This document shows, one piece after another, positions 1,642 to 64,000 of a DNA stretch of 64,000 bases. Each line of letters begins with the position of its first letter. Positions within the stretch are counted from its first letter, which is position 1. The notes under the pieces were generated by a model that was given only the letters and a program-made list of their open reading frames with translations, had not been told where the DNA came from and made no database searches. Origin of the DNA: Chrysomallon squamiferum (lineage: Eukaryota; Animalia; Mollusca). The DNA lies in contig CM022677.1 of NCBI GenBank assembly GCA_012295275.1, positions 23,374,001 through 23,438,000 of the forward strand, written 5' to 3'. The position numbers were made by a program, and so were the translations under genes.

Positions 1642-1830
1642 TCGATGGTGGATGGGCATCTTGGGAAACTGATCAAACGATGTGTGCGGTTTCGTGTGGA
1701 AATGGTAGTGAACACACGATTTATGAAAGGCAATGTACAAATCCAGAACCACAACACGGAGGAAACGATTTTGTAGGACAAGCATCGAAGACTAGTGTCT
1801 CTGGTAGCTGCTGGGAAAGATACTGTCCAG
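1642..1830 (+). pseudogene. TSR exon class F, copy 1, donor-defective
   Basis: ttaag|VDGGWASWETDQTMCAVSCGNG...NDFVGQ...RYCP. The donor reads GGAAAG where the paralogue at 28226 has GTAAAG, and the fourth Cys is changed to Phe (TGT>TTT). Confidence 0.8.
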
Positions 1831-3669
1831 GGAAAGAAATCGCGCTGTTTACCTTGTCATTAAAATCACTGTTAATTAATTAATTTTGAGAGACATTTAT
1901 CTGCGTAAGGGAAATATATTTCATATTTTAAAGAAATGTTTAAAGACATAAAGGAAAAAGCATTACATCGAAGGAAGTTCAGAGTACTGTGTAATTATAT
2001 TTTTCAGTTAACGGTGGATGGACATCTTGGGAAATATCTGGGTCTGAATGTAGCGTTACCTGTGGGCAGGGTAATCAGCAGACGGTTTATAGTAGGCAGT
2101 GCACGAATCCACAACCACAGCATGGTGGAGATGATTGTGCAGGGGAATCTACAAAGCAGGATGTTTCAGGTGACTGTCAGGAACAAGACTGTCCAGGTAT
2201 TCAACTTGTGATTAGATTCATTTCTTAATTATTTGAAAATACACATATGTTGGTGTTTTCCTGAAAGATATACATATATATATATATATATTTTTAATCC
2301 AGTGATATCATTAACATTTTGTTTCAGTTTATTAGGAAGGAAGTGATGAAATTTCATAAATTTCATTTTTGGTATGTTTATCTTATTTTTATATGCAGCT
2401 AAAATCTGCTAAAATAGTTTTCAGAAACGTTTTACTTTTAATTTATAATGAAAAGTAGAAATATGCATGCTCTGTGTCATGGTCCGTTATTAAGGTGCGG
2501 TAATTTGCATGTCTGAGTAATCCGGAGAGATTCAGGAGGAGCTACAGCTTTCTAGTAGGGATTCCCTGGTCAGGTAAGGCAACAGACTAATTAATGTATG
2601 GGACAAAGCTACTGGCAGTGGGGGAAGTAAAAATAAGGCAAAGGAAAATACATGAAAGCTACGAAGTGTAAAACAATGGAAGGTACCTCACAGAGAATGA
2701 TATCACACAGTTTCTCTAACACCAACCTGCTGGCCAAACGTTGCAGTAGCCAGTTATCAGTCATTGATTATGGACCAATTAAATTTAGAGTACATCTCAA
2801 CCACAGAGGGGATTACTGTAAAATGTTGCAAAGATGGAATTTAAAAAGGTAAACTGGGTTGGAATCAGATAATAAAAGAAAGAAAAAAGTCTTCAGGCTC
2901 AGGTGGAATCACTAATGAAAGGAGAAAATTACCTCTAGACGAAGAATCAATAGCCACAGGAATCATGTTGACCTCGAAAACACAGCTTAAGAAATCTCCC
3001 AGCAGGCTAGAACTACATATCCTAGTTATAAAGAAACACTCTGGAACATCCTGCCAACATTCAAATAAAACTCTACACAAGTCATGTTAGATTAACACCA
3101 GAATTTGGAAAGACATCCTGGCGAACATCAGCTAAAACGGACTTATGGACAGTAAGACCAAAAACATTCCAGTGCAATATACTGTTCCTGCTTGGAAGAG
3201 AAACACTTTTATCTTCTAGGAATTATCAAAACGGCTGCCATGTCAAAATTGGTAGGAAGCGCTCTTACGATATAGGAAAAACGCATCCCCTCAAAATCTG
3301 TGGATACAGGATTATACTGATGGATCAGTTGACAAAGGACACAAATAGAGGCGGATGAATTCAAATTTAACTCATTATATGTCAAAAAGATTCCGGTTTA
3401 ATTTTAACAGGTAAGCACTTCTCCAATTATAAGGCAGAAATGAATCCCTGAGCAAAAGCGTTTTTCAACAAAATACACAGTAAAGTAATAATCTTTTCTG
3501 ATGATCCTGCTGTTTTCGAGACTGAATTCCGACAAACAAAATAGTGTAATCTTTATATTTAATTATGGTAAAGTGAAACACGGCTATAATTGTTGACACA
3601 AGTTAAAACAGTTTTATATAATTATTTATTTTAATTAATTAATTAATTTATTGTTATTACAATTATTAC

Positions 3670-3748
<79 letters not shown>

Positions 3749-3824
3749 TTTTTTTTTTTTTTTTAGAAATCATTAGGTGCAAAAATCATGTTTATGGAAA
3801 TATGACCTGTTAAAAGAATAATAT

Positions 3825-3915
<91 letters not shown>

Positions 3916-4642
3916 TACTGTGTATGCAACGTAAGTTACTGTGTATGCAACGTGAGTTAAATCTCAGAATTACAATAGTTATTGTCTGTTTTTATTTTGT
4001 CATCCTCAAAAATAAAGACATTCGTTCACACACATACAAACATACATGATCATGATCATTTTATTTTCTAAACTTTTCTCTCAGTAGCAAACAGTAAAGT
4101 GATGTTCTAAAAATTACGTACGAAAATGGTTTCTATTATTGATATTAAATTGATTTAAGCGGTGGATGGGGGATGGAGTACGTGGATAATTACCTTTATC
4201 CCTTGTCCACAGACGTGTGGACCTCGAAAACGTGTCTACAGCACCACTGTCAAAGTACGACAGTGCACGAGACCACCACCGCAGTATGGAGGACGTTGTA
4301 GAGGTGTTAGTGCAGAAACACAAATGGAGGATTGTCGTATTCCTGAATGTCCTGGTAATTATACTATTATTACAGTTTATTTGTATTTATTTAATTATTT
4401 GTTAGAGCTTGTTTATATTTTCTGTTAGGTAACACATCACATAATTGTGACAATAGTTTTGAATGTTAAAGAGCCTCTCTCAAATGTTATGTGTATATAA
4501 AATAAGAGAAATTGGAAAGGATTTGTTTTTGTGCAGTTTATATCAGTGAAGAGTGGTGTCCTTGTACAGAATATTTGGTTAAAGCATTAATAATACTTAA
4601 TAGAAATATCCAACAATAAGACGAAGTCTTCGATAAGTAAGC

Positions 4643-4676
<34 letters not shown>

Positions 4677-7600
4677 TACTGTAAGCACACATTTGGTCAG
4701 CGGTAGAAATCTGTACGTTATGTTTAGTCTTGCCACATTATTCCTGTCTTGCCACATATCATTAGAAAGCTCATTTTATTAACTTGGCCACCACGTCTTG
4801 TTCTGGACACCACAGAAGTTGGGGTATTGTTTTCACTGTCACGTTTTTCAAATTTGAACGACAAATTCTCTGAATCAGTCACGATAAAATAAACAACACA
4901 CAATTTAAGAGGAAATATTCATTATTATTTCTATGCAGTTCAAAATATTAGAGGTTTCTTGTAAGCCGAGTCAAAGAGGTTAAAAACAACTGATTTTGCT
5001 CCTTTTTACAATGATTGATGAAACGTAGCTGCCTGCTGCTGCCTTCAGTCTCATACATTCACACACACAGACGCATACACACACAGACACACACAAACAC
5101 TAAAATATAAACTAAAATGAATTAACTACACAAGAACAACGACGACGACGACCACAACAACAACAACAACAACAATAATAATAAAGTTAAATTGAAAGCA
5201 GAAGTGCCGTGTATAACAGAACATTAAACTTAGTAATTATCGTTTTAAATCGATGGTGGATGGGCATCTTGGGAAACTGATCAAACGATGTGTGCGGTTT
5301 CGTGTGGAAATGGTAGTGAACACACGATTTATAAAAGGCAATGTACAAATCCAGAACCACAACACGGAGAAAACGATTGTGTAGGTCAAACAACGAAAAC
5401 TAGTGTCTCTGGTAGCTGCTGGGAAAGATATTGTCCAGGTATAAAAATCGCGATGTTTTCCTTGTCACTGTTAGTTAATTTTGAGAGACATTTATGTGCG
5501 CATACAGAAAGAAACAGTGTGGTGGTTACAGCTTGTTAAACGAGCGTAGAAAGAACAGCATTAGCATATAGTTTTTTTTTATGACATCTTATATTTAATC
5601 TAGTAACAATTCATGTGTTGATGATACATACTCATCTTTAGAAGACCCCCCCCAAAAAAAAAAGAAAGAATAGAAAATACAAAAAAAAAAAAAAAAAATA
5701 AAAAGTAAATAACGAAAATAAGAAAAACAAAATGACTCTTTTCAATTCTGTATATTCGTGAGGTTAAAAGATGCCATACGTGTGCAAAATGGCCAGTTAA
5801 GAGAGAACATAAAATATCACGTTTTAAAGAAATGTTTAATTGGTGCCTGTGGCTTTTTGTTTAAAACAGCAACTTTGCTGGAAAGGTGGAAAAGGTTGTG
5901 GCAAACAAATGATTGTCAAATAGTGTAACACGTCAAGTAAGATTATTATCTCCTGATAAAGATAGTTACGTAGCTATAAGATGTGATACAGATTAACTGT
6001 CGTAGAACACTTATAAAGGCTAGATTGTTCTTGTATCATATTGGATATGAATAAATGAGTTCAGAATGACTTAAATCCATAAGTAAATCATTCTTTTCAT
6101 AGACGCCTTCACCATCATCAAGGAACCAGTCTCTATTCAAAGTCTATACATCCATCCTTGTTGATTATTTAATTACAAGTACTTTGTGCACTTTGATCAT
6201 CTAGAAATTGAATAGCAATAGATTTGACTTCAAAATATCTTTTGATTAATTCACTTTTGTACAATTTAAACCAACTAATTGTAAGACATAAAGGAAAAAG
6301 CATTACATCGAAGGAAGTTCAGAGTACTGTGTAATTATATTTTTCAGTTAACGGTGGATGGACATCTTGGGAAATATCTGGGTCTGAATGTAGCGTTACC
6401 TGTGGGCAGGGTAATCAGCAGACGGTTTATAGTAGGCAGTGCACGAATCCACAACCACAGCATGGTGGAGATGATTGTGCAGGGGAATCTACAAAGCAGG
6501 ATGTTTCAGGTGACTGTCAGGAACAAGACTGTCCAGGTATTCAACTTGTGATTAGATTCATTTCTTAATTATTTGAAAATACACATATGTTGGTGTTTTC
6601 CTGAAAGATATACATATATATATATATTTTTAATCCATTAACATTTTGTTTCAGTTTATTAGGAAGGAAGTGATGAAATTTCATAAATTTCATTTTTGGT
6701 ATGTTTATCTTATTTTTATATGCAGCTAAAATCTGCTAAAATAGTTTTCAGAAACGTTTTACTTTTAATTTATAATGAAAAGTAGAAATATGCATGCTCT
6801 GTGTCATGGTCCGTTATTAAGGTGCGGTAATTTGCATGTCTGAGTAATCCGGAGAGATTCAGAAGGAGGAGCTACAGCTCTCTAGTAGGGATTCCCTGGT
6901 CAGGTAAGGCAACAGACTAATTAATGTATGGGACAAAGCTACTGGCAGTGGGGGAAGTAAAAATAAGGCAAAGGAAAATACATGAAAGCTACGAAGTCTA
7001 AAACAATGGAAAGTACCTCACAGAGAATGATATCACACAGTTTCTCTAACACCAGCCTGCTGGCCAAACGTTGCAGTAGTCAGTTATCAGTCATTGATTA
7101 TGAACGAATTAAACTGAGAGTACATCTCAACCACAGAGGGAGTTACTGTAAAATGTTGCAAAGATGGAATTTAAAAAGGTAAACTGGGTGGGAATCAGAT
7201 AATAAAAGAAAGAAAAAAGTCTTCAGGCTCAGGTGGAATCACTAATGAAAGGAGAAAATTACCTCTAGACGAAGAATCAATAGCCACAGGAATCATGTTG
7301 ACCTCGAATACACAGCTTAAGAAATCTCCCAGCAGGCTAGAACTACATATCCTAGTTATAAAGAAACTCTCTGGAACATCCTGCCAACATTCAAAGAAAA
7401 CTCTACACAAGTCATGTTAGATTAACACCAGAATTTGGAAAGACATCCTGGCGAACATCAGCTAAAACGGACTTATGGACAGTAAGACCAAAAACATCCC
7501 AGTGCAATATACTGTTCCTGCTTGGAACAGAAACACTTTTATCTTCTAGGAATTATCAAAACGGCTGCCATGTCAAAATTGGTAGGAAGCGCTCTTACGA

Positions 7601-7999
7601 TATAGGAAAAACGCATCCCCTCAAAATCTGTGGATACAGGATTATACTGATGGATCAGTTGACAAAGGACACAAATAGAGGCGGATGAATTCAAATTTAA
7701 CTCATTATATGGCAAAAAGATTCCGGTTTAATTTTAACAGGTAAGCACTTCTCCAGTTATAAGGCAGAAATGAATCCCTGAGCAAAAGCGTTTTTCAACA
7801 AAATACACAGTAAACAAATAATCTTTTCTGATGATCCTGCTGTTTTCGAGACTGAATTCCGACAAACAAAATAGTGTAATCTTTATATTTAATTATGGTA
7901 AAGTGAAACACGGCTATAATTGTTGACACAAGTTAAAACAATTTTATATAATTATTTATTTTAATTAATTAATTAATTTATTATTATTACAATTATTAC

Positions 8000-8057
<58 letters not shown>

Positions 8058-8136
8058 TTTTTTTTTTTTTTTTTTTAGAAATCATTAGGTGCAAAAATCA
8101 TGTTTATGGAAATATGACCTGTTAAAAGAATAGTAT

Positions 8137-8235
<99 letters not shown>

Positions 8236-9408
8236 TGTGTATGCAACGTAAGTTACTGTGTATGCAACGTGAGTTAAATCTCAGAATTACAATAGTTATT
8301 GTCTGTTTTTATTTTGTCATCCTCAAAAATAAAGACATTCGTCCACACACATACAAACATACATCATCATCATCATGATCATTTTACTTTCTAAACTTTT
8401 CTCTCAGTAACAAACAGTAAAGTGATGTTCCAAAAATTACGTACGAAAATGGTTTCTATTATTGATATTAAATTGATTTAAGCGGTGGATGGTGGATGGA
8501 CTTCGTGGATAATTACCTTTATCCCTTGTACACAGACGTGTGGACCTAAAAAACGCGTCTTCAGCACCACTGTCAAAGTACGACAGTGCACGAGACCACC
8601 ACCGCAGTATGGAGGACGTCGTTGTAGAGGGGTTAGTGCAGAAACAAGAATGGAGGATTGTCGTATTCCCGAGTGTCCTGGTAATTATGCTATTATTACA
8701 GTTTATTTGTATTTATTTAATTATTTGTTTATATTTTCTGTTAGGTAACACATCACATAATTGTGACAATAGTTTTGAATGTTAAAGAGCCTCTCTCAAA
8801 TGTTATGTGTATATAAAAATAAGAGAAATTGGAAAGGATTTGTTTTCGTGCAGTTTATATCAGTGAAGTGCGGTGTCCTTGTACAGAATATTTGTTTAAA
8901 GCATTAATAATAATTAATAGAAAAATCCAACAATAAGACGAAGCCTTCGGTAAGTAAGCAGGTAAAAAAAAAATAATAAGAAAAAATAAAATAAAATAAA
9001 ATAACAATAACAGTAAAAAATGTTAAAAAAAATTTAATAAAGAAAAATAAGGACGAAAGAAAATAAAAGAAATTGTATATATAAAAGTTTGAAATATTTT
9101 ACCATACAAACGATACAAACTTTTAAAACATAATCAGTGACTATGGTACCTAGAATGTACTAACGTCAGCAATAAATAAAAAAATAAATAAAAAAAATAA
9201 TAATTCAGCTGGATTCGAGTATAGACTATTTATATTATTTTTATTTTATTTGTATTTATTTAAAAAATACTGGAATCTGTTTGTAATATACAAAATAAAA
9301 TTGACATGTACAATGGATTTTTGGGGGGATGAATAATATACGAGTTTTAAAACATTTTATATTTCTGTAGTGGAATTAACCACGTTTTTTTTTTGGATTG
9401 TTTGCGAG

Positions 9409-9443: not shown

Positions 9444-9642
9444 TCTATGATTAATAAATATCTTACATTTAATAAATGATATTTCGAATATAGAAATAGT
9501 TTTAATGTTTTCTATTTATTTATTTTTTTGTATTTTTTACTTCAGAATCAGTAGTGATGAAAGGTATGTTATCTTTTTATTTCTTTTAAAATTTATAAAA
9601 TGGTCATAAATAAATTTGATAGTCTAATATCCACTGATATTA

Positions 9643-9729: not shown

Positions 9730-10598
9730 AATAATAATAATAATTTAAAAATAAATAAAGAAGAAATAGTCGTAATGAGTTAAATCTGAGATATGATAAT
9801 TTGATGAAATGGACTTTCCAGTTCAAGATGTTTAAAATATTCCAGACTTTGCTTCACGATCTGATCTCCATGTAACACATCGTGATGTAATAAATCTCTG
9901 TTACATGATATGCAGAACAGTCTGGTCTTTATTAACAATTTTCTGTAATTTATGTTCAGAATAAATAATCTTTTTTATTAGCTTGTTCTAAAATGTCATT
10001 TTGTGGTTAAGGTGTGTGAGATTAATGTTTGAATGCATTCAGTATTCACTCAGAGTTTAGCTCATACATATTTATTTGTATAAACAAAAATAATAATACT
10101 TTCAGGAGACAGGAGTGAAGACATTGCAGTACCAATAGTGATGGTTGTCTTGTTTGTTGCGCTCGGATTAGCTGTTTTTACTTACTACAGGTGAACACCA
10201 TTAACAGTAGCAAACGATATCTTGTTGTTGTTGTTGTTGTTGTTTTTTTGGTTTAATTATTAAAGAAAAAGATGTTTACATAGTAGTGAATTATTAGTGA
10301 AGTTATACGTAACACTTAGAGTGCATACACAGAATGTTGCAAACAAAACCAAGCACTAAATTTTATTGTTTCAGTTACTTTGAAGGATGAAGACGTTTTA
10401 AAATGCTTTAATTATAAAAACAATTGCTTTTACTTATTAGTTATTTATTTTGTGCTTGGAATGCAAACATAGAAGTATTATTATTATTATTATTATTTTT
10501 CTTTTTTAAGGACGATAGATAATCGGAACAGAGGCAGCGAAATACTTATCAAGGAAAGGCCTGAAATAGGTAGCCATGAAAATTATGCAATGACTTAA
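1642..10598 (+). CDS. Gene 1 (3' part): multi-TSP1-repeat single-pass type-I membrane protein; 5' end lies upstream of the window
   Basis: Phase-1 TSR exons at 2008, 4160, 6348 and 8483 (plus two splice-defective copies at 1642 and 5250) splice in frame to the microexon 9546-9563, TM exon 10106-10190 and tail exon 10511-10598 ending in TAA. Confidence 0.85.
2008..2196 (+). CDS. TSR exon class G (gene 1)
   Basis: ttttcag|VNGGWTSWEISGSECSVTCGQGNQQTVYSRQCTNPQPQHGGDDCAGESTKQDVSGDCQEQDCP|gtattc; 189 nt, six Cys, WxxW. Confidence 0.92.
2510..3535 (+). mobile_element. Decayed non-LTR retrotransposon (LINE with RT C-terminus and RNase H, I/Nimb/Ingi-like)
   Basis: Frameshifted remnants read WIQDYTDGSVDKG, SNYKAE and VIIFSD (RNase H motifs YTDGS, SNYxAE, IFSD) and KKHSGTS (post-RT region). 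Boundaries are approximate. Confidence 0.7.
4160..4354 (+). CDS. TSR exon class H (gene 1, copy 1)
   Basis: taag|AVDGGWSTWIITFIPCPQTCGPRKRVYSTTVKVRQCTRPPPQYGGRCRGVSAETQMEDCRIPECP|gtaatt; 195 nt. Confidence 0.88.
5250..5438 (+). pseudogene. TSR exon class F, copy 2, acceptor-defective
   Basis: The TSR frame is open, but the acceptor is TTTTAAA|TC where paralogues have TTTTAAG|TC. The donor GT at 5439 is intact. Confidence 0.8.
6348..6536 (+). CDS. TSR exon class G (gene 1, copy 2)
   Basis: Identical in sequence to 2008-2196, with intact AG/GT. Confidence 0.92.
6840..7865 (+). mobile_element. Second copy of the decayed LINE (RT/RNase H) fragment
   Basis: Near-identical to 2510-3535; copied with the intragenic tandem duplication. 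Confidence 0.7.
8483..8680 (+). CDS. TSR exon class H (gene 1, copy 2; membrane-proximal)
   Basis: taag|AVDGGWTSWIITFIPCTQTCGPKKRVFSTTVKVRQCTRPPPQYGGRRCRGVSAETRMEDCRIPECP|gtaatt; 198 nt. Confidence 0.88.
9546..9563 (+). CDS. 18-nt linker microexon (ESVVMK)
   Basis: Strong pyrimidine tract and ttcag|...aaag|gtatgt; phase 1-1; conserved at 31802-31819. Confidence 0.7.
10106..10190 (+). CDS. Transmembrane exon (gene 1)
   Basis: ttcag|GDRSEDIAVPIVMVVLFVALGLAVFTYYR|gtgaac; about 22 hydrophobic residues followed by Arg. Confidence 0.88.
10511..10598 (+). CDS. Cytoplasmic tail / terminal exon (gene 1)
   Basis: Phase-2 acceptor ttaag| continues the TM exon: TIDNRNRGSEILIKERPEIGSHENYAMT*. An AATAAA lies at 10714. 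Confidence 0.85.
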
Positions 10599-12951
10599 CT
10601 TTGAAGCAAAATATTATAATTATTCTTATAGATATATTTGTCAGAGAGAACATTTTGAGATCAAATGTTATATTTTACTTTTATGTGTATGTTATTTGCT
10701 CAGATCTTTTAATAATAAAAATAGCATAATACTATTTAAAGATATTAGAAAGGTGAAAATACTAAATAAACTACTTTTGTTTATTTCTGTTAGAATATCT
10801 GTTTTTTTCACCTATTTTTTGCTAATTAATTAGTTTTATCGAAATTGCTTTAAAATTTTATCAGATACATATATAAATATATATGTATATTTTGACATAT
10901 TAAATGTTATGTTCTTGATTTCAGGTGTTTTATCAAATTATTCTATATCTGTTTTTAAAATCTATGTGTTTACATATTTTGATAGTTAAATAATTTCTTC
11001 ATTCGTTACCTTTTTACAAATTTTAAATAATGTGTTGCAGTTATTACCGTGATTGTGTAAGCGGAAGTAAATCAGACTCAAAACTCAAACTAGCAACCGG
11101 CATGACGTAAAAGAGGATAGAAACTATATTCAATAATATTTGTATTAAGAGACACCTAACATTGTTTAAAATACTTCCTTACACTCCGCTAATTCAGATT
11201 ATATGTATGTATGCATGTATGTATGTATGTCCGTATAAACACCCCCCCCACACATATATATCGTTTTCATCTTCTTTTCTTGTTAACGTATGTTCTTGTT
11301 TTCATATTTTATATCATAAGTATCATAATGGAATTTTCCACAGGAGACCAGTGGCTTCATTTTCTCCTATATTTGCCCATTGCCATCAGTCCAGTCTCCT
11401 AAGCGAAGAGTCCATTTTCAATACGGAATTACGAGCTTAGGAGCTCGTTTCACTCCAGGTGAATGAGATTAGTTTTTTTTGTTACTTGTGTAATTAACAA
11501 AACTGATTCAATAAGGAGTTAGTAGAACTCAAAAAAAAAAAAAAAAATAAAATAAAATAAAAAAATAAAATCAGTAAATAAAAAAATAAAAAATAAATAA
11601 AAAAAACAACAAAGAAATAAAACAATAAATAAAAACGAAAAACTTAGAAAAGAAAACTTGTTATTTTGCTATCTGATGGCTAACACGTCTTTCAAATTTT
11701 AAATAGGATGAATTGTGATGATTGAAATAATAAACTTTATTTTTTAAAATGAATCATTATGATTATTAATTTGACTATTTTACCCCTAACCTATATAAAA
11801 AATGTTATTAAATGGCTTTGAAACATCAACAAGAAAAAGTATATATATATATATTTAGAGAGAGAGAGAGAGAGAGTATCAGGGATCAGAGTTTTGCGCA
11901 AATTTATTGATTTTATAGGGTTAGTTTTTCTTTGTTTAATGTTCTGTACTCATTTCTGCAATTCGTTTATTTCTGGTCGGGAGAGTATATTTTAGAATTA
12001 GGCTCGGCATAATACTTTGTTTACATCCGACTTTGTCTTACCAAGTCTTCATTTTATATGTGACCCAACAACAAAGCATATACTATAGTTGAATGCACAG
12101 GAAATAGTACAACAGCTGCTGACCAATCTGTGACGAAACGGTTCAAAAGAGTAGACGATGCTGAATCATTTCAAATAAATTAATTCACAGTGGGTCGAGA
12201 TTCAGAATGTTTGCTGGTACATTTTATTAGAATATCATCCAAGTAATAGCTCCAAAATGTGTTATCACTACATAGCTATAGCGATTTGAACGTAACTTGT
12301 GTCAAATAACACAATTTGTTTTTCATGCAAAGAAATAAGTAAGTTCATTTTTTCCATGATTGATAGTACTGATGTTTGCAAAAAAAATGAGTATCATGAA
12401 AGCCGATTTTCAGAATGACCTCCATAGGGATTCTATTAAGAGACTGTTCGTAGTAAATTAATTTATGGATCTCGTTTCAGATCTGGTTGTAGATTCTAAT
12501 AAAAACACTTCTGTACATGATTAACGTTTCTAAGTTGTATACATTTTTTACCGTTTTATTCAGCACCGTGTTCTATTTGCTGCGGTCATTGTTTTTCATT
12601 TGTTGCCTTTGACTGTACAATTTTATTATAATTTCTATATCAATAACAATAAAAACAGATAATGACCTTTTCCTTAATATAAAATATAAAATATATTCAA
12701 ATTTTACAAAGTGTAGCGAAGTATAAGAAAATGGGTTAGAGTTCTTCGCTAAGTTGAACCTTTGTGCAGTTAGCTACTATTAATTATAATAAATGACATA
12801 ATAAAACTGCAGAAGTAGCAGAAACGATAAAGTCAATGCTGCAGATATGCGAATGAGCACAGTAACCATCCCATCGCCATATAGAGAAATAAAATAATAA
12901 ATAATAATGAAAATTCAAAAAATAAAAATAAAAATAAAATCGTAAGTCAAT

Positions 12952-13858: not shown

Positions 13859-13889
13859 CAGATATATATATAAAATTTTAAAATAACAA

Positions 13890-14376: not shown

Positions 14377-14435
<59 letters not shown>

Positions 14436-14813: not shown

Positions 14814-14873
<60 letters not shown>

Positions 14874-15216: not shown

Positions 15217-15247
<31 letters not shown>

Positions 15248-20306: not shown

Positions 20307-20361
20307 ATGAACTTTGTTACTATAATATGTTTTCTTATCTGTGGATTCCACATCTTTAAAG
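20307..20361 (+). CDS. Signal-peptide exon, gene 2
   Basis: Acceptor ttttgcag| (exon from 20294); ATG gives MNFVTIICFLICGFHIFK|gtaatt, which continues into VDCSW (signal peptide-like). Confidence 0.85.
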
Positions 20362-24605: not shown

Positions 24606-24678
<73 letters not shown>

Positions 24679-36466: not shown

Positions 36467-36517
<51 letters not shown>

Positions 36518-54124: not shown

Positions 54125-54157
<33 letters not shown>

Positions 54158-54629
54158 TTTTTAATTTGACAGAATTAGAAAACAGCTTATATCAAACTGA
54201 TCAAATAAAAGAATCTAAAAATGTTTAGATTTTGTATTAAAGACACAAACAAATATATAAATATAAGCCTTTTTAAAATTATATTTGATTTTGACATAGA
54301 AATTCTAAAGCACAGAATAGAGGAAAAGAGGAAAAAGAAAATGCATTAATAATCTAATACGTTGCGACAATCGGAAACACACAAGAATTAAATATATATA
54401 TATATTTAAAAATGTGTGTTTTGCATAAAATAAAAAATAGAGTTAAGACTTTGATATGACATGACATTTTTCTTTTTAAAATACAAAAAATGAAAAAAAA
54501 AAGAGAAACAAATTAAAAAAAACAAAAACAAAAACAACGACAACAATAACAAAAAAAAAAAAAAAAAAAACAAAAAAAATGAAGTCAAAAAATTTTTTTT
54601 TTTTTTAAAGTAAGTGAGAATTTTTTTTA

Positions 54630-54665
<36 letters not shown>

Positions 54666-57038
54666 AAAACAAAATTATAAAAATAAAATTAAAATAACTG
54701 AAACATATTTAAGTAGCCAAAAAAAAATGTAGAAGAAACAAAAAAGAAACAAAACTAAACAATTTTTTAAAATGTGATAATGAAAGTAATAATTTATCGA
54801 GCTTATAGTTTAAGTGATTGAAATTAAAAATAGTTTTTTGAGATGTATAAAATGCTTTTTGGTAAAACCGTGTGTGAAGTAGAAAATAAACACAAATATA
54901 TAAACTTTACCTTCAGCAGATGAATATGGATCACTGGATGGTGAATGGTCTCCTTGGAGACAAACTGACTTAATACCTTGTAGTGTGACTTGTGGAATTG
55001 GAACTCATGCAATTCCATATGCAAGAAGATGTACTAATCCCCAGCCTACAGGTGGAGGAAGGAATTGTACAGGGCCGAGCAACAAAACTGTCATACAGAA
55101 GTGTTTTCGAACAGAATGCATTGGTATGATCAATATATTTATAATTTTTGTACATATGTGTATCTGCTTGGACATTCTCTATCTTAACCCAATAAATATG
55201 CATACAGCTATTCTTCATCCATTAATTACAATGCTTTTTTCATTATATAAATATATATAAACGAATATAAAAATGTTATGTTTTGTAATAATTTCAAAAT
55301 AATATTAAGAAATGATAATTTAATAATAAAAAAAGTAAATAAATATAAATAAAATAAAATAATATGTAACATGATATGTTCTTTTTGTATCACACTGGTA
55401 ACTTCTGAATCATTGCTCAGCTGGTGACAATCGTGTCATATTTGCTAGTTCTTGTTCAAATAGCACAGATCTTTGCATTTGAAAAAAGATGATGCTTTGT
55501 TGTTGAACTGACAGAGTAACCTAGTTTTGTCATGCAGCAGACTTTTATTCGAGCAACAAGTTTTTGATCAACTTAATATTGTTTTCAACTGATGTAAGTT
55601 TTAATATGAAAGCATCAAAAGATAAACTACCGTTCTGCAAATAAAACGCTCAAGTTTATATAGTACAGGCTTTTTAGGCGTGAGTGAATAAAATGTTTAT
55701 ACATCAGTCAGTTTTAGTGATACAGAATTGAGAATACTTTAAAATGTGACATGCTTTAACAAGTAAGAATCTGTGTCCACAGAGGGCTGTCAATTTATAG
55801 TGTTGGAAAACCAAAGCTGTTTTATGCCCTGTAGTGAATGGAATAAAATATATTTAATGATGTAAATATCAGTTTCTTCTCTAATCTGCAAAAAAGCGAT
55901 CAGATAAAACAATCCAAAATTTGTTCAGACCATCAAACTTATTTTTCAGTATTGCTGATTTTTAAAAAGGTTCACATAAAATATCTGTCAGTACAAGAGT
56001 GCAATCAAATTAGGTTAGTATGTGAACATGTCAGATAGAAGAACTGTATATTCAGCTCTCAAGAATAATTTATTCTTTAATCAGAATCATCTTTGCCAAT
56101 TATTTAGAAACATCTTTTAGAGGGTTTAGAACCAGAGTCTACTCAGATTTAGCATTTTCAGCATTTGGAAATTGTTAGCGATAACGAAACTCTAGATGCA
56201 GTAAACACATTATGAGAATACACTTTTATGAGAAGAAAAAAGTCTAAAATATATTTGGAAATATTTTTTGCCTACTATTAAAAGTAAATTATGATTTTTT
56301 TTTAGCTATCATTTCATTTTCAACATATTTTTTTAGAAATACAATTAAATGTATCAAATTTTGAAGCGGCTGAAACAAAGCTATTTTTGTTTTCATAGGA
56401 TTCGTTGAAATGATTATAAATTTATTCAAATATTACCACTTCTTGTTTGTTTTCAGCCAATGGTCAGTGGAATGAGTGGTTTGTTCACACTGTTAAAAAA
56501 TGTGATTTGAATAACTGTCAACAGGAAGTTATTCACCAAAGATTATGTACAAATCCTGCACCCAGTCCAAGTGGCTCACCTTGTGCTGGTGAAAGTCAGC
56601 GTGTCAATTATAAAGACTGCTGTGAGAGAAGTATGTTAAGTGTTGTGTTTTTGTAATGTCATTGAATTTTAATAAAATGTAGCATGTTTAGTATGATTTT
56701 ATGAAATTATTTTTTTCTTATTGTTAAAACATATTTATTGCTTTTGTTTTAAATAAGTTTATAAAATCTAAATGAAGTATTTTTCAAACTGAGAAGTAAA
56801 CAGAACAATTTACAGATTTATCTAACTAAAAAGTACAGTTATTGAACAAAACATGGGTCGTACATACAGTCAATTTTTAGACAAAGTTGGAAGAAGTAAT
56901 GTTATTGCAGTGCACATCTATTCTTTTTAAAGGAAATATATCCAGTTAAGAAATTTCAAATGTGTCCATATATTTCCTAATGATTCATTTTCTTATTAAT
57001 ACTCAGAAAAGACCCTGTATGCAACCATAGGATCTAAA

Positions 57039-57069
<31 letters not shown>

Positions 57070-57079
57070 TCACATACAT

Positions 57080-57110
<31 letters not shown>

Positions 57111-58363
57111 CACACACACACTTTTAGATCCTATGAATTCAGCACACTGGTCGTCGTGGAGTACACAATTCAGTGGTGAATGTGAACATGCTTGTGGAAG
57201 ATATGTTTATAATTCACGACAATGTAACGGGTCAAACAGCGTGTGTTATGGACATTTTGTCAAGTCTCGTTGGGAACCATGCAAAGAAGAATCTTGTGAG
57301 ATGGGTGAGCTGAGTTAGATCTCACACTCCCTGTCAAACTAATCTTAATCTGTCATGAATGTGGCCCTGTCTGTTAATCTGGTCTTGTGTTCTTGTTTGG
57401 TATTGTTATATTTCAGGGATTTGGGGATATGCAGTTATTAATACTCCTTACATTATAAGTTTTATCTTCTTTTTTAATTTGTTGTTTGTTGGTTAGTTTA
57501 TTTATCTATTACTCCTCTTTAAATAACTATTCTGAGTTGGAAAGAGGCGCCTAGTTGCAACTTGTAAACAAAAAAACATCTGATACAGAAAGTTTGTGGC
57601 ACTGCCTCATATTCCACCAATACTGTTTACGTTTTAAAAAACTAAACAGGTGTATGATAAATTAAACCATAGTTCGAACACATTTTATTTAGATTTGTTG
57701 ATTTGTTTTAGTGCTTGTTATTATGTAGTAATCTATTTTATATTCATAGCTTTATATCTATGATAAATTGTAAACTATTTTCTCACTTTAGAGACTGACA
57801 TATACAAGCCAAAAATAAATAATAATCTGTTACAAGGTTTCTTTAACTAATGATCTCTTTCACTCTGACTATTATTATTATTATTGTTATTGTTGTTTTT
57901 GTTGTTGTTGTTGTTGTTGTTGTTATTATTATTATTATTATTAATATATTTTCTAGTTAATGGTGCATGGAGTCGTTGGGAACTTAAAAGCCAAAGTCCA
58001 TGTACTGTCACTTGTGGATATGGATATAGAAATATTTATCTTCGAAGAGAATGCAATGATCCTGTACCTGTGGGACAAGGATTATCCTGTCAAGGAATGG
58101 ATGAACAAACATATAAAGAACTTTGTTTCAGGAACGTTCAATGTGGTAACATTTTTATTATTATTATTATTATTATTAAATTTATAATTATTATTATCAA
58201 ATTCTTCCTGTTTTCTTTACTTTTCATTATGCTATAGAATTTGGAAATTGATCTAACAGATGAAGTAAAGAAAGCCAAACATTAAAAGATCCATGATATA
58301 TAATAATAATAATAACAAAAAAATAAAGTCGAAAAAAGATTAAAGAAACAATTACTTGGCATC

Positions 58364-58444
<81 letters not shown>

Positions 58445-58572
58445 TACTGTTATTATTACTACCATCATCATGAAAAGTTATAACATATTTTGATTTCATT
58501 TTGATATAGTTTTCTTTTAATAAAACACAGAATATAGGAAATTGATCCAATAGAGGAAGAATACTACTGTGA

Positions 58573-58665
<93 letters not shown>

Positions 58666-58972
58666 TACTATTATTATTACTATCATCATCATCAAAAGTT
58701 ATAACATTTTGATTTCATTTTGATATGGTTTTCTTTTTATAAAACACAGAATATAGGAAAGTGATCCAGTAGAGGAAGAATAATATTGTGTGATAACAGG
58801 AAACATAAAATACTTTTAAAATGTTTACAAATCGACATTTTACATTAAAAAAAAATAAAAAAAATAACAAAGAGAAAAAAAAATATATATAATTAAATCA
58901 TTTTATGCATGTATTTTATGAAATTAAAGATACCTAATACCTGGTTTCTAAAATAATTTCATTTTAAGCTAG

Positions 58973-59006
<34 letters not shown>

Positions 59007-59233
59007 TATATATATATATATATATATAAAAAAAAAGAAAATACAGATAGTATTAATCGATAATTTTAATGATTATTCCTTGAGCGGATAACAGATGAAT
59101 TTTTCTTTTTAATTTTTCGTTTTTTGAAAAAGTGAGGTATTTTTATTAATAAATTAATTAATTAATTAAATTATTATTATTATTATGATTGTTATTGTTA
59201 TTGTTGCTGTTGTTGTTATTGTTATTATTATTA

Positions 59234-59281
<48 letters not shown>

Positions 59282-62200
59282 TTGCTGTTACAGTTACCAA
59301 TATAAAATGAAAGAAAACACTATTCGAAAATCAGTTTCTCCAGGAACTGAAACATATTTAGATCTGCCTTTCAATTAAAAGATTAAAAGTAGAAGAAAAT
59401 ATTATTTTTTTTTTTTGTGATAATGATGAAGTAATAATATAACTTGTTTTTTATGTGTATATTGTCATGTTTGTAGTTTAAATGGTTGAAATTAAAAACA
59501 TTTTTTGGAATGTTTGAAATGTTTTAAGGTAAAGCATTTAAAACTGTATATGAAGTAGAAAATAAACACAAATATGTAAACTTTATTTTTAGAATATGGA
59601 AATGGATCATTAGATGGTCAGTGGTCTCCATGGTATCAAACAGATTTAATAGTTTGTGATGCGACTTGTGGAACAGGAAATCATGTAATTCCTTATGGAA
59701 GAACATGTGATCGACCCCGACCTACCAATGGAGGAAGGAATTGCTCAGGGCCCAGCACCAAAACTGTCATACAGAAGTGTTATCGAAGAGAATGTACTGG
59801 TATGATTAGTACATGTTTATCTTAATCCGGTGTGTGTTTGTGTGTTTTTCCAACACCAAAATTCCTTAATGAAGAAATTGCCATAGACTCCTAACGTCTT
59901 GTCAAATTTCAAATATGAAGATGAGAAATGGCAATTCTGAATTTTACTCAGTTTTAGCCAGACAGAATTTATAATATATTTGAAATTTGACACAATTTTA
60001 GGAATCTCTAGCATTTTCTTCATGAATGGATTTGTAATTTGGAACTAAAAAAGTCAGTATGCGTAAAAATTAATCAATGAAAAATGAGTAGTTAATGATG
60101 TCAGTGTCAGTATCAACCACTCCTTCTCTGCATTATTAAACCAACCGAAGAAAACATTCCAAATTAACTCTTTATTCATTGATATTTACATTTGGTAGGA
60201 AAAAACAGTTTGAAATATGAAACTAAATTGATAACCCATCTTCCCTGGTATCACATTAACAATCTGTTTATATATGTTTAGTGGTGAAAGAACGTTATAG
60301 TCAAGTATCATAAATAGTTAAGAAATATATTTTAGTGGTTTAGTCAAATTTAACATTTTGTATTTTCAGGTTTTAAGATAATAAAGACACAGACACAAAT
60401 TAATTAATGCAGAAATTAATCAAGAAATATGTAATTAAAAATAATTAATTGTAGTAATGTATTCTAAACATTCTTCTTTCTTATAGAAAGTAATTACAGT
60501 ACTATATTAGAGAAAAAAATGATTAGGTAGCGGCAAATCCATTTGCCAATACACTCCATCATATGTATGCTTAAGATTTGGTTGAAATGATAATCAGTTT
60601 ATAATTTATTTTGAAGATATAAAGATTTTCACAGATTTCTATAATTAAAATAATGTAATATGCATTTCAGTGAATGGTGGCTGGAATGTATGGTTTATTG
60701 AGAGCGTTACACAATGTAATTCGACCTCATGTAAACAGGCAGTTACATACAAGAGATTGTGTACAAATCCTGCACCCAGTCCAAGTGGCTCACCTTGTCC
60801 TGGTGAAAGTCAGAGTGTTAATTACAGAGACTGCTGTGAGAAAAGTATGTTGAGAGTAATTTTGATTTTGTTGTGCATTTGAATTGTTGAATTTTTTACT
60901 ATTCTTGCAGTGAATGACTTCATGACTTTTTCTTTGTGTCAAATATTGAATATTCAGCGCTAATTTTTTTTTATTTGAAATACTCTTAAAGTTTTATCAT
61001 TTACGTTTGCAAAATATATTTTGGTAATAACGTAGTAGAAAACTAATGTAGTGTGTGTGTGTGTGTGTGTCATTCTAAATTTGTTTGCCATGATTATTTT
61101 TTACTTTTGTTGTCAGTCATTCTAAACTTGGCTGATAATTACATTCAGATTTATTGTCAGTATTTCTGATGATTCTTATCAATATTGTGTGTATATTCAC
61201 TTTTGGTTTCTTTTGATTTTTGTTCACAATACTTCAGAGGATAATGTTGATAAGGTTAATTTGTTTTGTAATTTTAAGTTTAAGGATTGTTTTTTTTTAA
61301 TTTGATCTAGATAACTGTGAATTTAATATCTTTGTAAATAATGTTTTAGCCTGAAAAAAATATGTTACAAGCAAGGATACATTAATGATTATTTCAATTT
61401 ATAATTCGTCTGCACTGTGTTAATGATCCAAAGAATACAACAAACATAAGGTGGTAATACCAGATCTCAACTGTCTATAATTCAGTCAGGATTTACATTT
61501 TCAATTAAAATTTTGAAAAAGTAAGGCATAGATGGTATATTTGCGAGAGACGAAGAATAGCTGAAATGAAAAAATGGAAGTGTGTCATTCATAAATATTT
61601 GAAAACATGTAAAGTGTCACTAGATTGGTACAAAAACAAGATTACTCTAAGGAAAATCGAAGTTCCGGAAAACTAAACCAGTATCTGTCTGTGAAGACTG
61701 AAATCAGTTAAGACTTGTAAGACTCCACCAGTGCAACTGAATTTAAGAATCAGTAGAAGACCAACAGACAACAGCCCCTTCATCTTAAGACTGAGAAATA
61801 ACTTGTTTATAGACCTCTTGTATGTCTCACTTGACTGATAGACACATCTGCTTCTTGGAGTCGGAGTCATTGGTCAGAGTTTAGGGTGTTTGGAGAGAAT
61901 AACAGTAAATTTACTCCTAAACAACGTGGTGTGAGATCACTAACAATATGGGGATGTGTTTCATATGGATTCAAACGGGATCTAGTGACTGTGCAAGGAA
62001 TGCTAAATGGGGACAAATGTCACATCTTTCATTATATGTCATAACATTTCCATAACCATTCCCTACGACACTGACATGAGAGAATGGAGGAAAAGGCTGA
62101 CCTCATAGCCAATGCCATGCTGAGATTGTTCACCAGGAAGCCATAGAGACTCTAGCATGGCAATTTTGCAGTCTGATCTCAACACCACTGAGTACCTCTT

Positions 62201-63565
62201 GGACTTAGGGCCAACAACAAATAAGGAGGAGTACAGTTCACACATTGACCAGTGGTCATGTGGTATACACGTTTCTGAGTTATTGATATCTGTGTATAAT
62301 AAGTATCTATATAAGTATCTATATCACTGGTCTACTTTTTATTCTACAATGTTTTGTACTGATGTCAAAATGTTCAGCCTTGTTTTCTCTGCACACAGAT
62401 AAGTTTTCAAAAACACACGTAACAGTCCTACATATTTTCTGTTGCTGACTCGTAATATTGGATAAACATTTTAGTTCAGTTATGCAGTTTCTATCTATGA
62501 AGCTTTCATGTCTTTCTAAATTTGAATAACTATGCAAAGATTGGTATTAGATTACCTTTTAATATATATATATATATTTTTATATATATATATATACCTG
62601 TCTGTATATCTATATATATTTCTGAAGTTGTGTTTGATAAATATCAAGTTATTCACTGTTATTTATGTTTAAGAAAATTACCAATAACACCTTTGTAAAG
62701 AACCTCAGAAACACTTACGCAGAAAACATCACAATTACTGAAAACAAATTGTAAAGTAATTAGGGAAAACAGATTGTTGGCAACAAACTGAACATTTCCG
62801 ACATCATATTCATAATTAAGATGCACCAATTATAATTTACTAATAATTATTAATTAGTACTGTTGATGATATTATTAATTGTTATAATAAAAATATAAAT
62901 ATATTAACCATGCTTCATGCTCGTAAAATCTGAAAATAAATCCTTAACCATTTGATTTGATTGTCAGATTATCAGATAGAAGATCATTATTTATTATCAT
63001 AAAGTGTCCATCACATACAAAAAAAAAGTCATGACTTGTCCAATTATATTGTTTTGTAGTTGATGGAGGTTGGAGTTCTTGGTTATATGAAGGGCGAGGA
63101 TCATGCAGTGCTACATGTGCTTCTAATAGTTTGGTTAAGGTTAAACAGATAAGGGAGTGTAATAAACCAGTACCACGATATGGAGGACATAATTGTACAG
63201 GCAACAGTACTAGATTTCTGATGGAGCCATGTCAAGTTCTTCAGCCTGCTGGTAACAGACTAACAAAAATATTTTATGTGACATCGTTCTATTTAAATGA
63301 GTTTTAGTATTAGTGCTTATTGATGCAGTGTTACTACAAAGGCACATACAATTGTCTGAATTCCTATGATTTTTTTTAACAAATAGAAGAAGCTAATAAC
63401 ATAGAGCAGATACAGTTAATTCATTCAGTTTCATTTTGAGAGAATATTATTCTGTAGTCTAATGAATACTGAGTAACATTTATTTCTATATATATTAAAA
63501 AGTAAAAGACAAAAATTATAATTATCATTAGAGAATTATTTTTATAGAAAGCAGTTTTTAAACTA

Positions 63566-63616
<51 letters not shown>

Positions 63617-64000
63617 ATATATATATATAAAAAAATGTAGAATTCTATGACAGCAGCAGCAAGTAACAGCTGATTTGACTGCAAAAAGTTGTTCAGTTGA
63701 AATAGAAAAATATCATGTTGCTGCAAACTGATCTCTGTCTCTCTCTCCCTCATACATACACACCACAGACACGTAGATAGACACACACGCACATAATATA
63801 GAAGAAAATATTTTAATTACAAAAATAAATTCTAAATAAATGTTTCTCTTACTTTTAATTAAGTTGATGGGGGTTGGAGTTCATGGACGAGAAGTGTGGG
63901 GTCATGTTCAGTGACTTGTGGGTCTGGTATACGAGAGATAACACAGACAAGGCAATGTAACAACCCAGCACCAGAAAATAGAGGAGAAGACTGTGAAGGT
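42322..64000 (+). CDS. Gene 3 (5' part): signal peptide + at least 19 TSR exons; continues beyond the window
   Basis: Exon order SP,A,B,C,G-like,J,K,L,L,M,J,K,L,M,J,K,L,M,N,O; all phase 1-1 with AG/GT. Confidence 0.82.
43072..43245 (+). CDS. TSR exon class A, gene 3
   Basis: Differs from 20782-20955 at 2 nt. Confidence 0.9.
44811..44981 (+). CDS. TSR exon class B, gene 3
   Basis: attag|xGGWSSWTRDEKTCSVTCGPGTRIVVKTRQCNNTEGRNCEGGTTQNITESCETVACP|gtaaga. Confidence 0.88.
45271..45462 (+). CDS. TSR exon class C (variable), gene 3
   Basis: VDGGWSSWIQTEGECSVTCGLGNKNMERVKKCNNPAPQNGGKPCPPTKGDYVGWNIQCREGPCP|gtaaga. Confidence 0.9.
45751..45942 (+). CDS. TSR exon, F/G-related, gene 3
   Basis: VDGGWTSWEVGHTVCSVTCGKGIQQTVYERQCTNPEPQHGGNDCPGESMKTTNVSSSCWKGHCP|gtaata. 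Confidence 0.9.
46872..46928 (+). pseudogene. 3' fragment of a class C TSR exon
   Basis: ...NRSSVERNIPCREGPCP|gtaagaaataaa followed by the class C downstream intron; the 5' part is missing. Confidence 0.7.
47151..47312 (+). CDS. Atypical short TSR exon class J (unit 1)
   Basis: ttttcag|VIWTSWQTGFNGECVHACQRDVYDIRNCSGENQYCYGFFVKSHVGQCKEDACEM|gtaagt. Confidence 0.88.
47789..47977 (+). CDS. TSR exon class K (unit 1)
   Basis: VHGGWGYWEIISSDHCSVTCGYGYRYVDIRRQCNDPAPVGQGLKCQGIKTRGYRRACFVNVSC|gtaata. Confidence 0.88.
48519..48725 (+). CDS. TSR exon class L (unit 1)
   Basis: EHGNGSLDGWWSPWRQTDLIPCGATCGTGTHAVPYARTCTRPAPINGGRNCQGISNKTVMQKCFRRECI|gtcagt. Confidence 0.88.
49591..49797 (+). CDS. TSR exon class L, recent duplicate
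   Basis: Same as 48519-48725 except N>H and R>Q. Confidence 0.85.
51673..51843 (+). CDS. Atypical TSR exon class M (unit 1)
   Basis: VNGGWDSWFVHTVTKCDLNCQQKVFYQRVCTKPAPSPSGSPCQGDSQRVGYRDCCER|gtgtgt. Confidence 0.85.
52459..52635 (+). CDS. TSR exon class J (unit 2)
   Basis: xPCNRAHWTTWSADFSSVCVHECERYVYNSRQCVGDKRYCYGVFIKSRYERCKQDSCEM|gtaagt. Confidence 0.88.
53658..53836 (+). pseudogene. Class K pseudoexon
   Basis: tttgaag|..YGGWG.. with a frameshift, TGA at Cys2 and lost cysteines; lies immediately upstream of the intact K at 53931. Confidence 0.75.
53931..54119 (+). CDS. TSR exon class K (unit 2)
   Basis: VPGGWSRWEYISQSPCSVTCGYGYRNIYLRRECNDPVPAGQGLTCQGIPEQRFKRRCFSNIHC|gtaaaa. Confidence 0.88.
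54917..55123 (+). CDS. TSR exon class L (unit 2)
   Basis: CAGCAG tandem acceptor; ADEYGSLDGEWSPWRQTDLIPCSVTCGIGTHAIPYARRCTNPQPTGGGRNCTGPSNKTVIQKCFRTECI|gtatga. Confidence 0.88.
56457..56630 (+). CDS. TSR exon class M (unit 2)
   Basis: ANGQWNEWFVHTVKKCDLNNCQQEVIHQRLCTNPAPSPSGSPCAGESQRVNYKDCCER|gtatgt. Confidence 0.88.
57128..57304 (+). CDS. TSR exon class J (unit 3)
   Basis: xPMNSAHWSSWSTQFSGECEHACGRYVYNSRQCNGSNSVCYGHFVKSRWEPCKEESCEM|gtgagc. Confidence 0.88.
57957..58145 (+). CDS. TSR exon class K (unit 3)
   Basis: VNGAWSRWELKSQSPCTVTCGYGYRNIYLRRECNDPVPVGQGLSCQGMDEQTYKELCFRNVQC|gtaaca. Confidence 0.88.
58363..58792. repeat. Tandem duplication of a (TAA)n + ~130-bp unit
   Basis: The unit taattact..aaagttataaca..aaaacacagaatataggaaa..tagaggaagaata occurs twice, each time preceded by a long TAA run. 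Confidence 0.8.
59593..59799 (+). CDS. TSR exon class L (unit 3)
   Basis: EYGNGSLDGQWSPWYQTDLIVCDATCGTGNHVIPYGRTCDRPRPTNGGRNCSGPSTKTVIQKCYRRECT|gtatga. Confidence 0.88.
60671..60844 (+). CDS. TSR exon class M (unit 3)
   Basis: VNGGWNVWFIESVTQCNSTSCKQAVTYKRLCTNPAPSPSGSPCPGESQSVNYRDCCEK|gtatgt. Confidence 0.88.
61540..62280 (+). mobile_element. Decayed Tc1-like transposase fragment
   Basis: Frameshifted remnants WGCVSYGFKRDLVTVQGMLNG, PCHAEIV and SDLNTTEYLLDLG correspond to Tc1 VWGC..G.LN, ARPH and SPDLNPIE..W motifs. Boundaries are approximate. Confidence 0.72.
63060..63251 (+). CDS. TSR exon class N (five Cys)
   Basis: ttgtag|VDGGWSSWLYEGRGSCSATCASNSLVKVKQIRECNKPVPRYGGHNCTGNSTRFLMEPCQVLQPA|gtaaca. 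Confidence 0.82.
63864..64000 (+). CDS. TSR exon class O (truncated by the window end)
   Basis: ttaag|VDGGWSSWTRSVGSCSVTCGSGIREITQTRQCNNPAPENRGEDCEG... Confidence 0.88.

Follow-up and report, generated by a model that had tools for sequence, protein, structure and literature searches.

Three tandem genes whose ectodomains are built from thrombospondin type 1 repeats (TSRs) were found in a 64,000-nucleotide stretch of the Chrysomallon squamiferum genome (contig CM022677.1; the whole stretch, numbered from its first letter, is called the window). The evidence supports a tandem, expressed, birth-and-death family of TSR-only genes with constant and rapidly diverged exon classes, and the contrast between exons and introns, together with spliced RNA, strengthens the case for such a family. 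Its products likely form a diversifying family of cell-surface recognition receptors. The ligands of their variable repeats would be foreign and changing, most likely the surfaces of microbes or parasites or proteins coating these. This reading is given a probability of about one half.

Gene layout and domain content

The window is AT-rich (~29 % GC) and rich in microsatellites. Rebuilding exons from the sequence gave three head-to-tail genes in which each TSR occupies one phase 1-1 exon and 40 of 42 internal exons have AG/GT ends; every TSR motif in the window lies on the + strand. Intact TSR exons numbered four in gene 1 (3′ part only, the 5′ part lying outside the window), 10 in gene 2 and 18 in gene 3, where one more is cut at 64000. 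Genes 1 and 2 end in an 18-nt linker exon, a transmembrane (TM) exon and a 29-aa tail. Gene 3 runs past the window end and any TM exon would lie beyond 64000, so membrane anchoring is claimed for genes 1 and 2 only. Four decayed exon remnants, of the B, D, C and K types, are also present.

A profile of the window TSRs matched thrombospondin-1 at 4e-20, which together with the WxxW motif, six Cys and predicted three-stranded fold places the repeats in the TSR (TSP1) superfamily. Pfam TSP_1 was detected at E≤1 in nine of 14 exons tested, three of them above the curated cut-off, while the J and M exons among these 14 had no Pfam match. When 107 other reading frames from both strands (at least 55 aa, GC >30 %, complexity-filtered) were scanned with Pfam, no family reached the curated cut-off, and two frames had matches below it. 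These results agree with a preliminary description of the window, which had proposed three head-to-tail paralogues containing only TSRs, with 10 in one gene and at least 19 in another.

Gene 2 (+ strand) begins with a signal-peptide exon enclosing the ATG (20294–20361), followed by TSR exon A (20782–20955), with seven Cys and two nucleotides different from gene 3 A, and by a 69-nt half-TSR mini-exon, D (21155–21223), which holds WxxW and two Cys and was missing from the earlier map. A (B-C)x3 array of six TSR exons occupies 22873–25510 (B1 22873–23043, C1 23326–23517, B2 23827–24000, C2 24283–24477, B3 24859–25032 and C3 25316–25510). A broken B-type exon remnant (25930–26048) precedes TSR exons E (26146–26340), F (28037–28225), G (28847–29035) and H (30866–31057). 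The linker (31802–31819), TM (32265–32349) and tail (32660–32747) exons were placed from sequence only. Exon H contains an in-frame TGA (30988–30990), and the membrane layout therefore requires H to be skipped; the predicted membrane form without H is open over 720 aa, and inclusion of H is predicted to yield a secreted form of 698 aa. None of the RNA contigs listed lies over H, which is not usable as a sign of skipping, and DNA-type contigs over 30718–31162 carry three and two differences (positions unlisted). The complete layout previously ascribed to gene 2 stands for signal peptide, TSRs, linker, TM and tail, but the last TSR exon has a stop.

Constant and variable exon classes

Three exon classes were more conserved between paralogues than their 150-nt flanks: A (1.1 % versus 7.8 %), B1 (2.9 % versus 13.1 %) and G (1.6 % versus 7–10 %), with P values of about 1e-4 to 3e-3. 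The differences reported earlier between paralogues, two of 174 nt for A and 0–3 of 189 nt for G, were reproduced. In contrast, the C exons of gene 2 differed pairwise at 44 of 192, 37 of 192 and 40 of 190 positions (19–23 %), compared with 5–8 % in 150-nt flanks (Fisher P 5e-8 to 1e-4), and the complete B-C introns of gene 2 are 5–8 % divergent. Exon H differed by 22 % between genes 1 and 2, versus 9–12 % in the longer alignable flanks (P=1.5e-4 and 3e-6). The strongest hypervariability lies among repeats within gene 2. The proposed division into constant and hypervariable exons is correct for A, B1 and G, which fall below their flanks, and for the C exons within gene 2, which exceed theirs; it does not extend to C1 compared between paralogues (see below). 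Of the 64 C positions at the protein level, 34 vary and 30 do not, and all six Cys are retained.

TSR subtype and predicted variable face

The type-1 order of Cys, with the first Cys after WxxW, fits every window TSR, and all 35 have two Trp followed by at least six residues before the first Cys. Relative to thrombospondin-1, the window profile has approximately two extra residues per strand region and lacks the third Trp. The model of gene 2 C3 (pLDDT 84) has strands at residues 8–14, 19–28 and 51–60, and variable C positions fell in predicted strands more often than invariant ones (19 of 34 versus 8 of 30, P=0.017). A three-stranded model was also obtained for J2, a Pfam-negative exon of gene 3 (pLDDT 79), and its ten best Foldseek matches were all TSR-containing chains, none at E≤0.001.

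An extra N-terminal Cys occurs only in A and J2 among the window TSRs. Cys numbers are unusual in A (20782–20955) and J2 (52459–52635), with seven each, in D, with two, and in N of gene 3 (63060–63251), with five. Speculatively, the unpaired Cys of these exons could bridge neighbouring domains or chains.

Spliced RNA and divergence of the paralogues

Part of gene 2 was present in nine of the 11 sequencing runs listed. Four runs, two of RNA from one study and two of DNA type from two studies, were compared as contigs over gene 2 from the promoter region to the linker exon; such contigs cannot separate alleles from paralogues, and their depths were not taken as copy number. In RNA run X8 a single contig splices C1 to B2 at the predicted sites with no differences. 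Each of the two RNA runs contains the D-B1 joint, which is absent from the two DNA-type runs, and RNA contigs terminate at exon borders. The G contigs of both RNA runs have three differences, the count that separates gene 1 G from gene 2 G (positions unlisted), and a loose contig end in RNA run X9 matches gene 1 H2 over the 20 bases tested. Two further contigs of X9 are C1-like and differ from gene 2 C1 at 19 and 24 positions, against 21 for gene 3 C1; the two extra C1-like variants compared with one listed G contig are a hint only. Splicing is shown for gene 2 and for gene-1-like copies, and there are additional C variants. The possibility that no copy is transcribed, raised earlier as a challenge to the family, was tested and does not hold, as RNA contigs are spliced at the predicted junctions of gene 2.

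The paralogues have diverged over long blocks. Between genes 1 and 2, substitutions amount to 5.2 % and 6.6 % in downstream blocks of 5.8 and 4.2 kb; between genes 2 and 3, they reach 4.5–8.3 % in upstream blocks, in both cases with many indels.

Two further observations concern the 5′ half of gene 2. Position 20955, the last base of exon A, is C in the window and A in all DNA contigs of both DNA-type runs, representing either a private allele or a base error. The intron between D and B1 holds a very high-copy element (22170–22780) over which summed contig depth in the DNA-type runs was hundreds of times that of its neighbours. It has no Pfam match, is absent from the corresponding intron of gene 3 and is likely a transposon remnant.

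Relatives in databases and in Gigantopelta aegis

No close homologue was found in protein collections, where the best identity to the G exon was 60 %. A metagenome scan gave 12 loci of 40–50 % identity and no close relatives, and an alignment search with H/E exons recovered only two generic TSR proteins among 150 candidates. A J profile searched against 1.84 billion representatives had nine matches, none a close relative, consisting of six proteins of the snail Gigantopelta aegis, one TSR array and two that appear to be repetitive noise. A single TM directly after the last TSR was found in 22 of 216 proteins, among them TSR-only proteins of Haliotis, Mytilus and G. aegis.

Eight G. aegis RefSeq proteins named 'coadhesin-like' or 'hemicentin-1-like', all encoded on a contig of the same length (40,821,028) and so presumably on one 40.8-Mb contig, share the TSR subtype of the window (XP_041355522.1, XP_041355826.1, XP_041356405.1, XP_041356418.1, XP_041356563.1, XP_041356387.1, XP_041356055.1 and XP_041355607.1). 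The two-Trp, long-strand TSR accounts for 54 of 54 domains in this set and 35 of 35 in the window but for 139 of 2862 other domains, mostly from gastropods plus two ENA proteins; because the profiles that recovered the eight had been made from the window or from proteins of the set itself, selection explains part of the 54 of 54. Taken by themselves, these relatives point to a host that is likely a mollusc and probably a gastropod. Like the window genes, these proteins have a signal–TSRn–TM layout, with four to 11 TSRs; a TM is present in six, five of which have a TSR-only ectodomain. One has a short IKERP stretch after the TM. Unlike the window genes, some have long tails with paired YxxL/I/M motifs and one has a VWA domain. 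YxxL/I/M motifs occur in several tails, with two each in proteins P0128 and P0155. In sequence, the window genes resemble this set only distantly.

Two of these proteins have features of their own. P0155 (XP_041355607.1), of VWA-TSR-TM layout, has two YxxL/I motifs ten residues apart, resembling an immunoreceptor tyrosine-based activation motif (ITAM). The model of P0042 (XP_041356387.1) seems to end out of frame at the place where its paralogue P0128 has a TM; a shifted frame may hide a TM at the C-terminus of P0042, to which the score weakly points (one of 100 shuffles as high).

The supplements of the G. aegis hologenome paper, as far as accessible, list 26 'coadhesin-like' genes, five of them on one contig among 21 rows (PMC7895826). 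Five of the 26 belong to the 1782 of 21,438 genes that are high in the symbiont-housing gland, with log2 fold changes of 6.3–9.9 (PMC7895826 supplements). The main text of that paper mentions neither TSP, coadhesin nor spondin (PMC7895826), and TSR terms are absent from the accessible part of a preprint on hotspots in the same snails (10.1101/2024.05.23.594666).

A putative recognition locus and its alternatives

The favoured reading, given about even odds, is that a remodelled TSR serves here as the basis of a recognition locus comparable in its working to the polymorphic transmembrane clusters. Unequal crossing-over would add, delete and swap whole TSRs, and since all exons are phase 1-1 such gains, losses and exchanges would cause no frameshift. 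Gene conversion would homogenise introns and the scaffold repeats A, B and G, while selection would keep C-type repeats distinct, and perhaps H, K and M also. The variable residues are predicted to lie on three adjacent lengthened strands that have lost the third Trp of the usual ladder, and may form one binding face carried on a rod of constant spacer repeats. The tails of genes 1 and 2 have a single Tyr; with a 29-aa tail devoid of YxxL/I/M/V the three genes would be tethers or co-receptors rather than lone signallers, in contrast to some G. aegis look-alikes whose tails may signal through paired YxxL/I/M motifs. A bolder extension, itself quite unlikely, is that the remodelled TSR is an antibody-like variable face, that short-tailed and Tyr-motif forms pair to signal, and that symbionts are in this way told apart from pathogens at the epithelium that houses them.

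Several results weigh against a recognition function. Full-length gene 2 depends on exon skipping, and signalling motifs are absent from the tails in the window. C1 compared by position between genes 2 and 3 is not elevated (11.5 % versus 10.2 % in flanks), and the 22 % divergence of H between genes 1 and 2 equals that of the nearest 150-nt flanks, a comparison confounded by indels. In the invariant C framework, synonymous sites are 16–36 % divergent (3–7 of 19 sites), from which it follows that the C copies are old lineages amid homogenised introns and not simply accelerated; old C lineages among homogenised introns would, however, be the pattern expected from conversion opposed by selection. 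In 40 pairwise comparisons, no ratio of non-synonymous to synonymous divergence (dN/dS) exceeded 1 significantly. Site models (M1a/M2a), run on three to four sequences per class and with conversion as a confounder, gave P=0.076 for C, 0.016 for K, 0.026 for M and 0.24–1.0 for B, E/H, J, L and F, and no class survived correction for eight tests. The codon tests for positive selection are thus only suggestive. Kinship with G. aegis is also thin in places: the G. aegis set supplies the best match for only three of 35 window TSRs, all of class M; TM and tail resemble those of P0128 weakly (z 1.7 and 3.0, best of 12), and BLASTP did not align the tail exon with that protein; and 63 of 102 forks stayed open in a quick tree of 105 rows, excluding near-duplicates, gene 2 H and gene 1 F1. 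The enrichment of 'coadhesin-like' genes in the symbiont organ has P=0.06, and the gene identifiers of PMC7895826 are not tied to the RefSeq eight, which makes this enrichment a lead.

Adhesion or anchoring to a matrix such as mucus, shell, sclerite or basement membrane, with a constant host ligand and a repeat number that sets reach rather than specificity, is a rather unlikely alternative. Coadhesin is a coral skeletal protein, a name that also occurs in two coral skeletal-proteome papers, the short tails of the window genes carry no signalling motifs, and the gastropod proteins with the nearest TSRs include secreted ones that end in chitin-binding or C-type lectin domains; THSD7A, of the same layout, acts in adhesion and migration (10.1101/2023.05.03.539264). 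Anchoring leaves unexplained, however, why C exons are three to four times more divergent than their introns and why variable sites cluster on strands. If adhesion is the only function, the locus is an ordinary lineage-specific repeat expansion. A largely neutral turnover of redundant repeats under relaxed constraint, with patchy conversion of introns and some exons and with decaying copies, would account for the many dead exons (F1, F2, gene 2 H and the four remnants), for dN/dS near 1 in B and C and for a positive-selection signal that is absent after correction. It is nevertheless improbable, given that 30 of the 64 C positions are invariant with six Cys retained, that the genes are spliced in RNA and that neutral conversion would not be expected to leave just the C exons untouched in each of the three units, as sliding counts show them to be.

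Recognition of self or of gametes, in which matching ectodomains bind in trans as in Hydractinia Alr or read a sperm or egg ligand as in EBR1, fits the mosaic of homogenised and divergent exons; as far as the available sources go, Alr has the same tandem, exon-shuffled single-pass layout, and EBR1 has TSP1 repeats homogenised within species. The Pfam scans of 14 exons and 107 frames, however, found no immunoglobulin (Ig), CUB or ADAMTS domain, and allorecognition loci are known from colonial animals whereas the host is probably a solitary mollusc, so this explanation is considered doubtful. It is very improbable that the three genes are an assembly artefact, with haplotypes or repeats placed in tandem. 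A 1071-nt duplication in gene 3 with 99.3 % identity (L1a/L1b) and the lack of a spanning long read for the region in the runs compared would fit such an error. The paralogous blocks, by contrast, differ by 4.5–8.3 % substitutions and many indels over kilobases, and their exon sets differ. Moreover, both DNA-type runs contain near-exact pieces of gene 2 introns as well as a copy, ~11 % divergent, of an intron stretch that is absent from gene 3.

The recognition reading can be tested directly by means of the map of constant and variable exons. Diversified recognition receptors of invertebrates use Ig, lectin, fibrinogen and leucine-rich repeat (LRR) scaffolds. If a clustered family diversifies a TSR face, it would add one more scaffold, and if the antibody-like extension is true, the family would do with TSRs what other diversified immune receptors do with Ig, LRR and lectin scaffolds. 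Automatic annotation masks such genes as 'coadhesin-like' or 'SCO-spondin-like'.

Other exons and sequence features of genes 1 and 3

Gene 1 (+ strand) contains two successive sets of F, G and H exons. TSR exon F1 (1642–1830) has the donor GG instead of GT and has lost one Cys, and is likely dead in this assembly; G1 (2008–2196) and H1 (4160–4354) are intact. F2 (5250–5438) has the acceptor AA instead of AG, and G2 (6348–6536), identical to G1, and H2 (8483–8680), whose sequence appears at the loose end of the X9 contig noted above, are intact. The G-H stretch is duplicated internally (1943–4673 versus 6283–8991, 95 %). These exons are followed by the linker (9546–9563), TM (10106–10190) and cytoplasmic-tail exon with stop (10511–10598), and by AATAAA-type signals (10714–10899). 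Beyond the tail exons lie GC-rich stretches (46–47 % versus 25 %) with AG/GT ends, at 11344–11458 in gene 1 and 33482–33595 in gene 2. They were rejected as coding 3′ exons on account of a 1-nt indel that shifts the frame between the genes, and are possibly an alternative 3′ exon or a repeat. Both intergenic copies (13880–15300 and 35500–36920) contain an AT-rich tandem unit of ~438 nt (2.4 copies).

Gene 3 (+ strand) starts with a signal-peptide exon (42309–42376), A (43072–43245), a decayed D near 43523, B1 (44811–44981), C1 (45271–45462) and an F/G-type exon (45751–45942). A (J-K-L-M)x3 array of divergent TSR exons with one L doubled covers 47151–60844: J exons start at 47151, 52459 and 57128, K at 47789, 53931 and 57957, L at 48519, 49591, 54917 and 59593, and M at 51673, 56457 and 60671, with array remnants near 46873 and 53658. 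Exon N (63060–63251; five Cys) and exon O, from 63864 and cut by the window end at 64000, follow. The doubled L lies in the head-to-tail duplication mentioned above (48078–49148 versus 49150–50219), each copy holding one L exon (2 nt apart), which is either a very recent event or an assembly artefact.

Comparison with known systems

The mismatch with hemicentin, SCO-spondin, ADGRB, SEMA5 and UNC5 noted in the preliminary description was confirmed. The partner domains are Ig, G2F and EGF in hemicentin, VWD and LDLa in SCO-spondin, GAIN-7TM in ADGRB, sema in SEMA5, ZU5 and death in UNC5, and VWA and F5-8 in coral coadhesin. No partner domain of these proteins or of EBR1 was found in the 107 window frames of at least 55 aa, and none interrupts gene 2 between its signal peptide and its tail.

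The suggestion that the architecture is undescribed, on the other hand, was not borne out, and the proposed profile and BLAST search for a known TSR-only TM family revealed no close homologue but the same layout in Haliotis, Mytilus and G. aegis. Haliotis XP_046338820.2 has an ectodomain of nine TSRs only, a TM and a 39-aa tail, and Mytilus XP_063400323.1 a TSR-only ectodomain and one TM. Three or more Trp are kept in the TSRs of both, against two in the window, and the repeats of the Haliotis protein hardly differ from one another. In THSD7A, a type I membrane protein, 21 TSRs make up the ectodomain and are followed by one TM and a tail of 26 aa (10.1101/2023.05.03.539264). THSD7A and THSD7B, whose genes are conserved and present in few copies, resemble the window genes in their TSR-only ectodomain, single TM and short tail, but alternate type-1 with type-2 TSRs, the latter with an N-terminal C1–C4 bridge, whereas the window has the type-1 order only. 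None of the 14 window exons scanned had a THSD7-specific Pfam match, and no THSD7-named protein was among the matches listed (120 in each of two protein searches, with no direct alignment to THSD7). THSD7A clusters lead an Atlas feature search with a G. aegis protein, at 0.79, under the 0.9 bar.

'TSR + TM', comprising only TSP1 domains and one TM, is a named class in sacoglossan slugs according to the available part of PMC7663992, and gene 2 and the 3′ part of gene 1 have this composition. The accessible text of PMC5446238 states that blocking of TSRs lowers symbiont colonisation in Aiptasia and proposes a TM-bearing TSR-only protein as a pattern-recognition receptor; in both sources such proteins are pattern-recognition candidates, and in the parts available neither reports clustering or diversification (PMC7663992, PMC5446238). 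If the recognition reading is true, the window genes would be concrete candidates for the unidentified TSR proteins that gate symbiont entry in cnidarians (PMC5446238). Properdin, a secreted protein with six TSRs and no TM in the part of PMC7663992 available, differs from genes 1 and 2, which have TM exons. TSR families are expanded in giant clams, according to the accessible part of PMC11700175. A literature search that covered sources other than subscription papers and bioRxiv supplements found neither a description of any molluscan TSR-only TM family that is clustered and diversified nor a paper on the eight G. aegis proteins.

The closest functional analogies come from other protein families, here compared within the accessible parts of the sources. 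In the snail Biomphalaria glabrata, the PTC1(GRC) and PTC2 clusters of divergent single-pass genes control parasite resistance and, like the window, combine clustering with gene gain and loss (PMC7494358). No known domain is present in the PTC2 genes, and the word 'thrombospondin' is absent from that text (PMC7494358). For the PTC clusters polymorphism and a link to resistance have been demonstrated, while the window family is known from gene sequence and RNA contigs. Hydractinia Alr genes are likewise tandem, exon-shuffled and single-pass, but have Ig and FnIII-like ectodomains and tails with ITAM or the inhibitory motif ITIM, none of which was found in the window (10.1101/2022.03.04.482883). 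Sea-urchin EBR1 shares arrays of TSP1 repeats, which in EBR1 are homogenised within species, and has ADAMTS and CUB domains, neither of which was found in the window (PMC13672419). PTC2, EBR1 and Alr are therefore analogies and not relatives. Genes 1 and 2 of the window belong to the descriptive TSR + TM class, and the window genes do not have the distinguishing features of THSD7, hemicentin, SCO-spondin, EBR1 or Alr.

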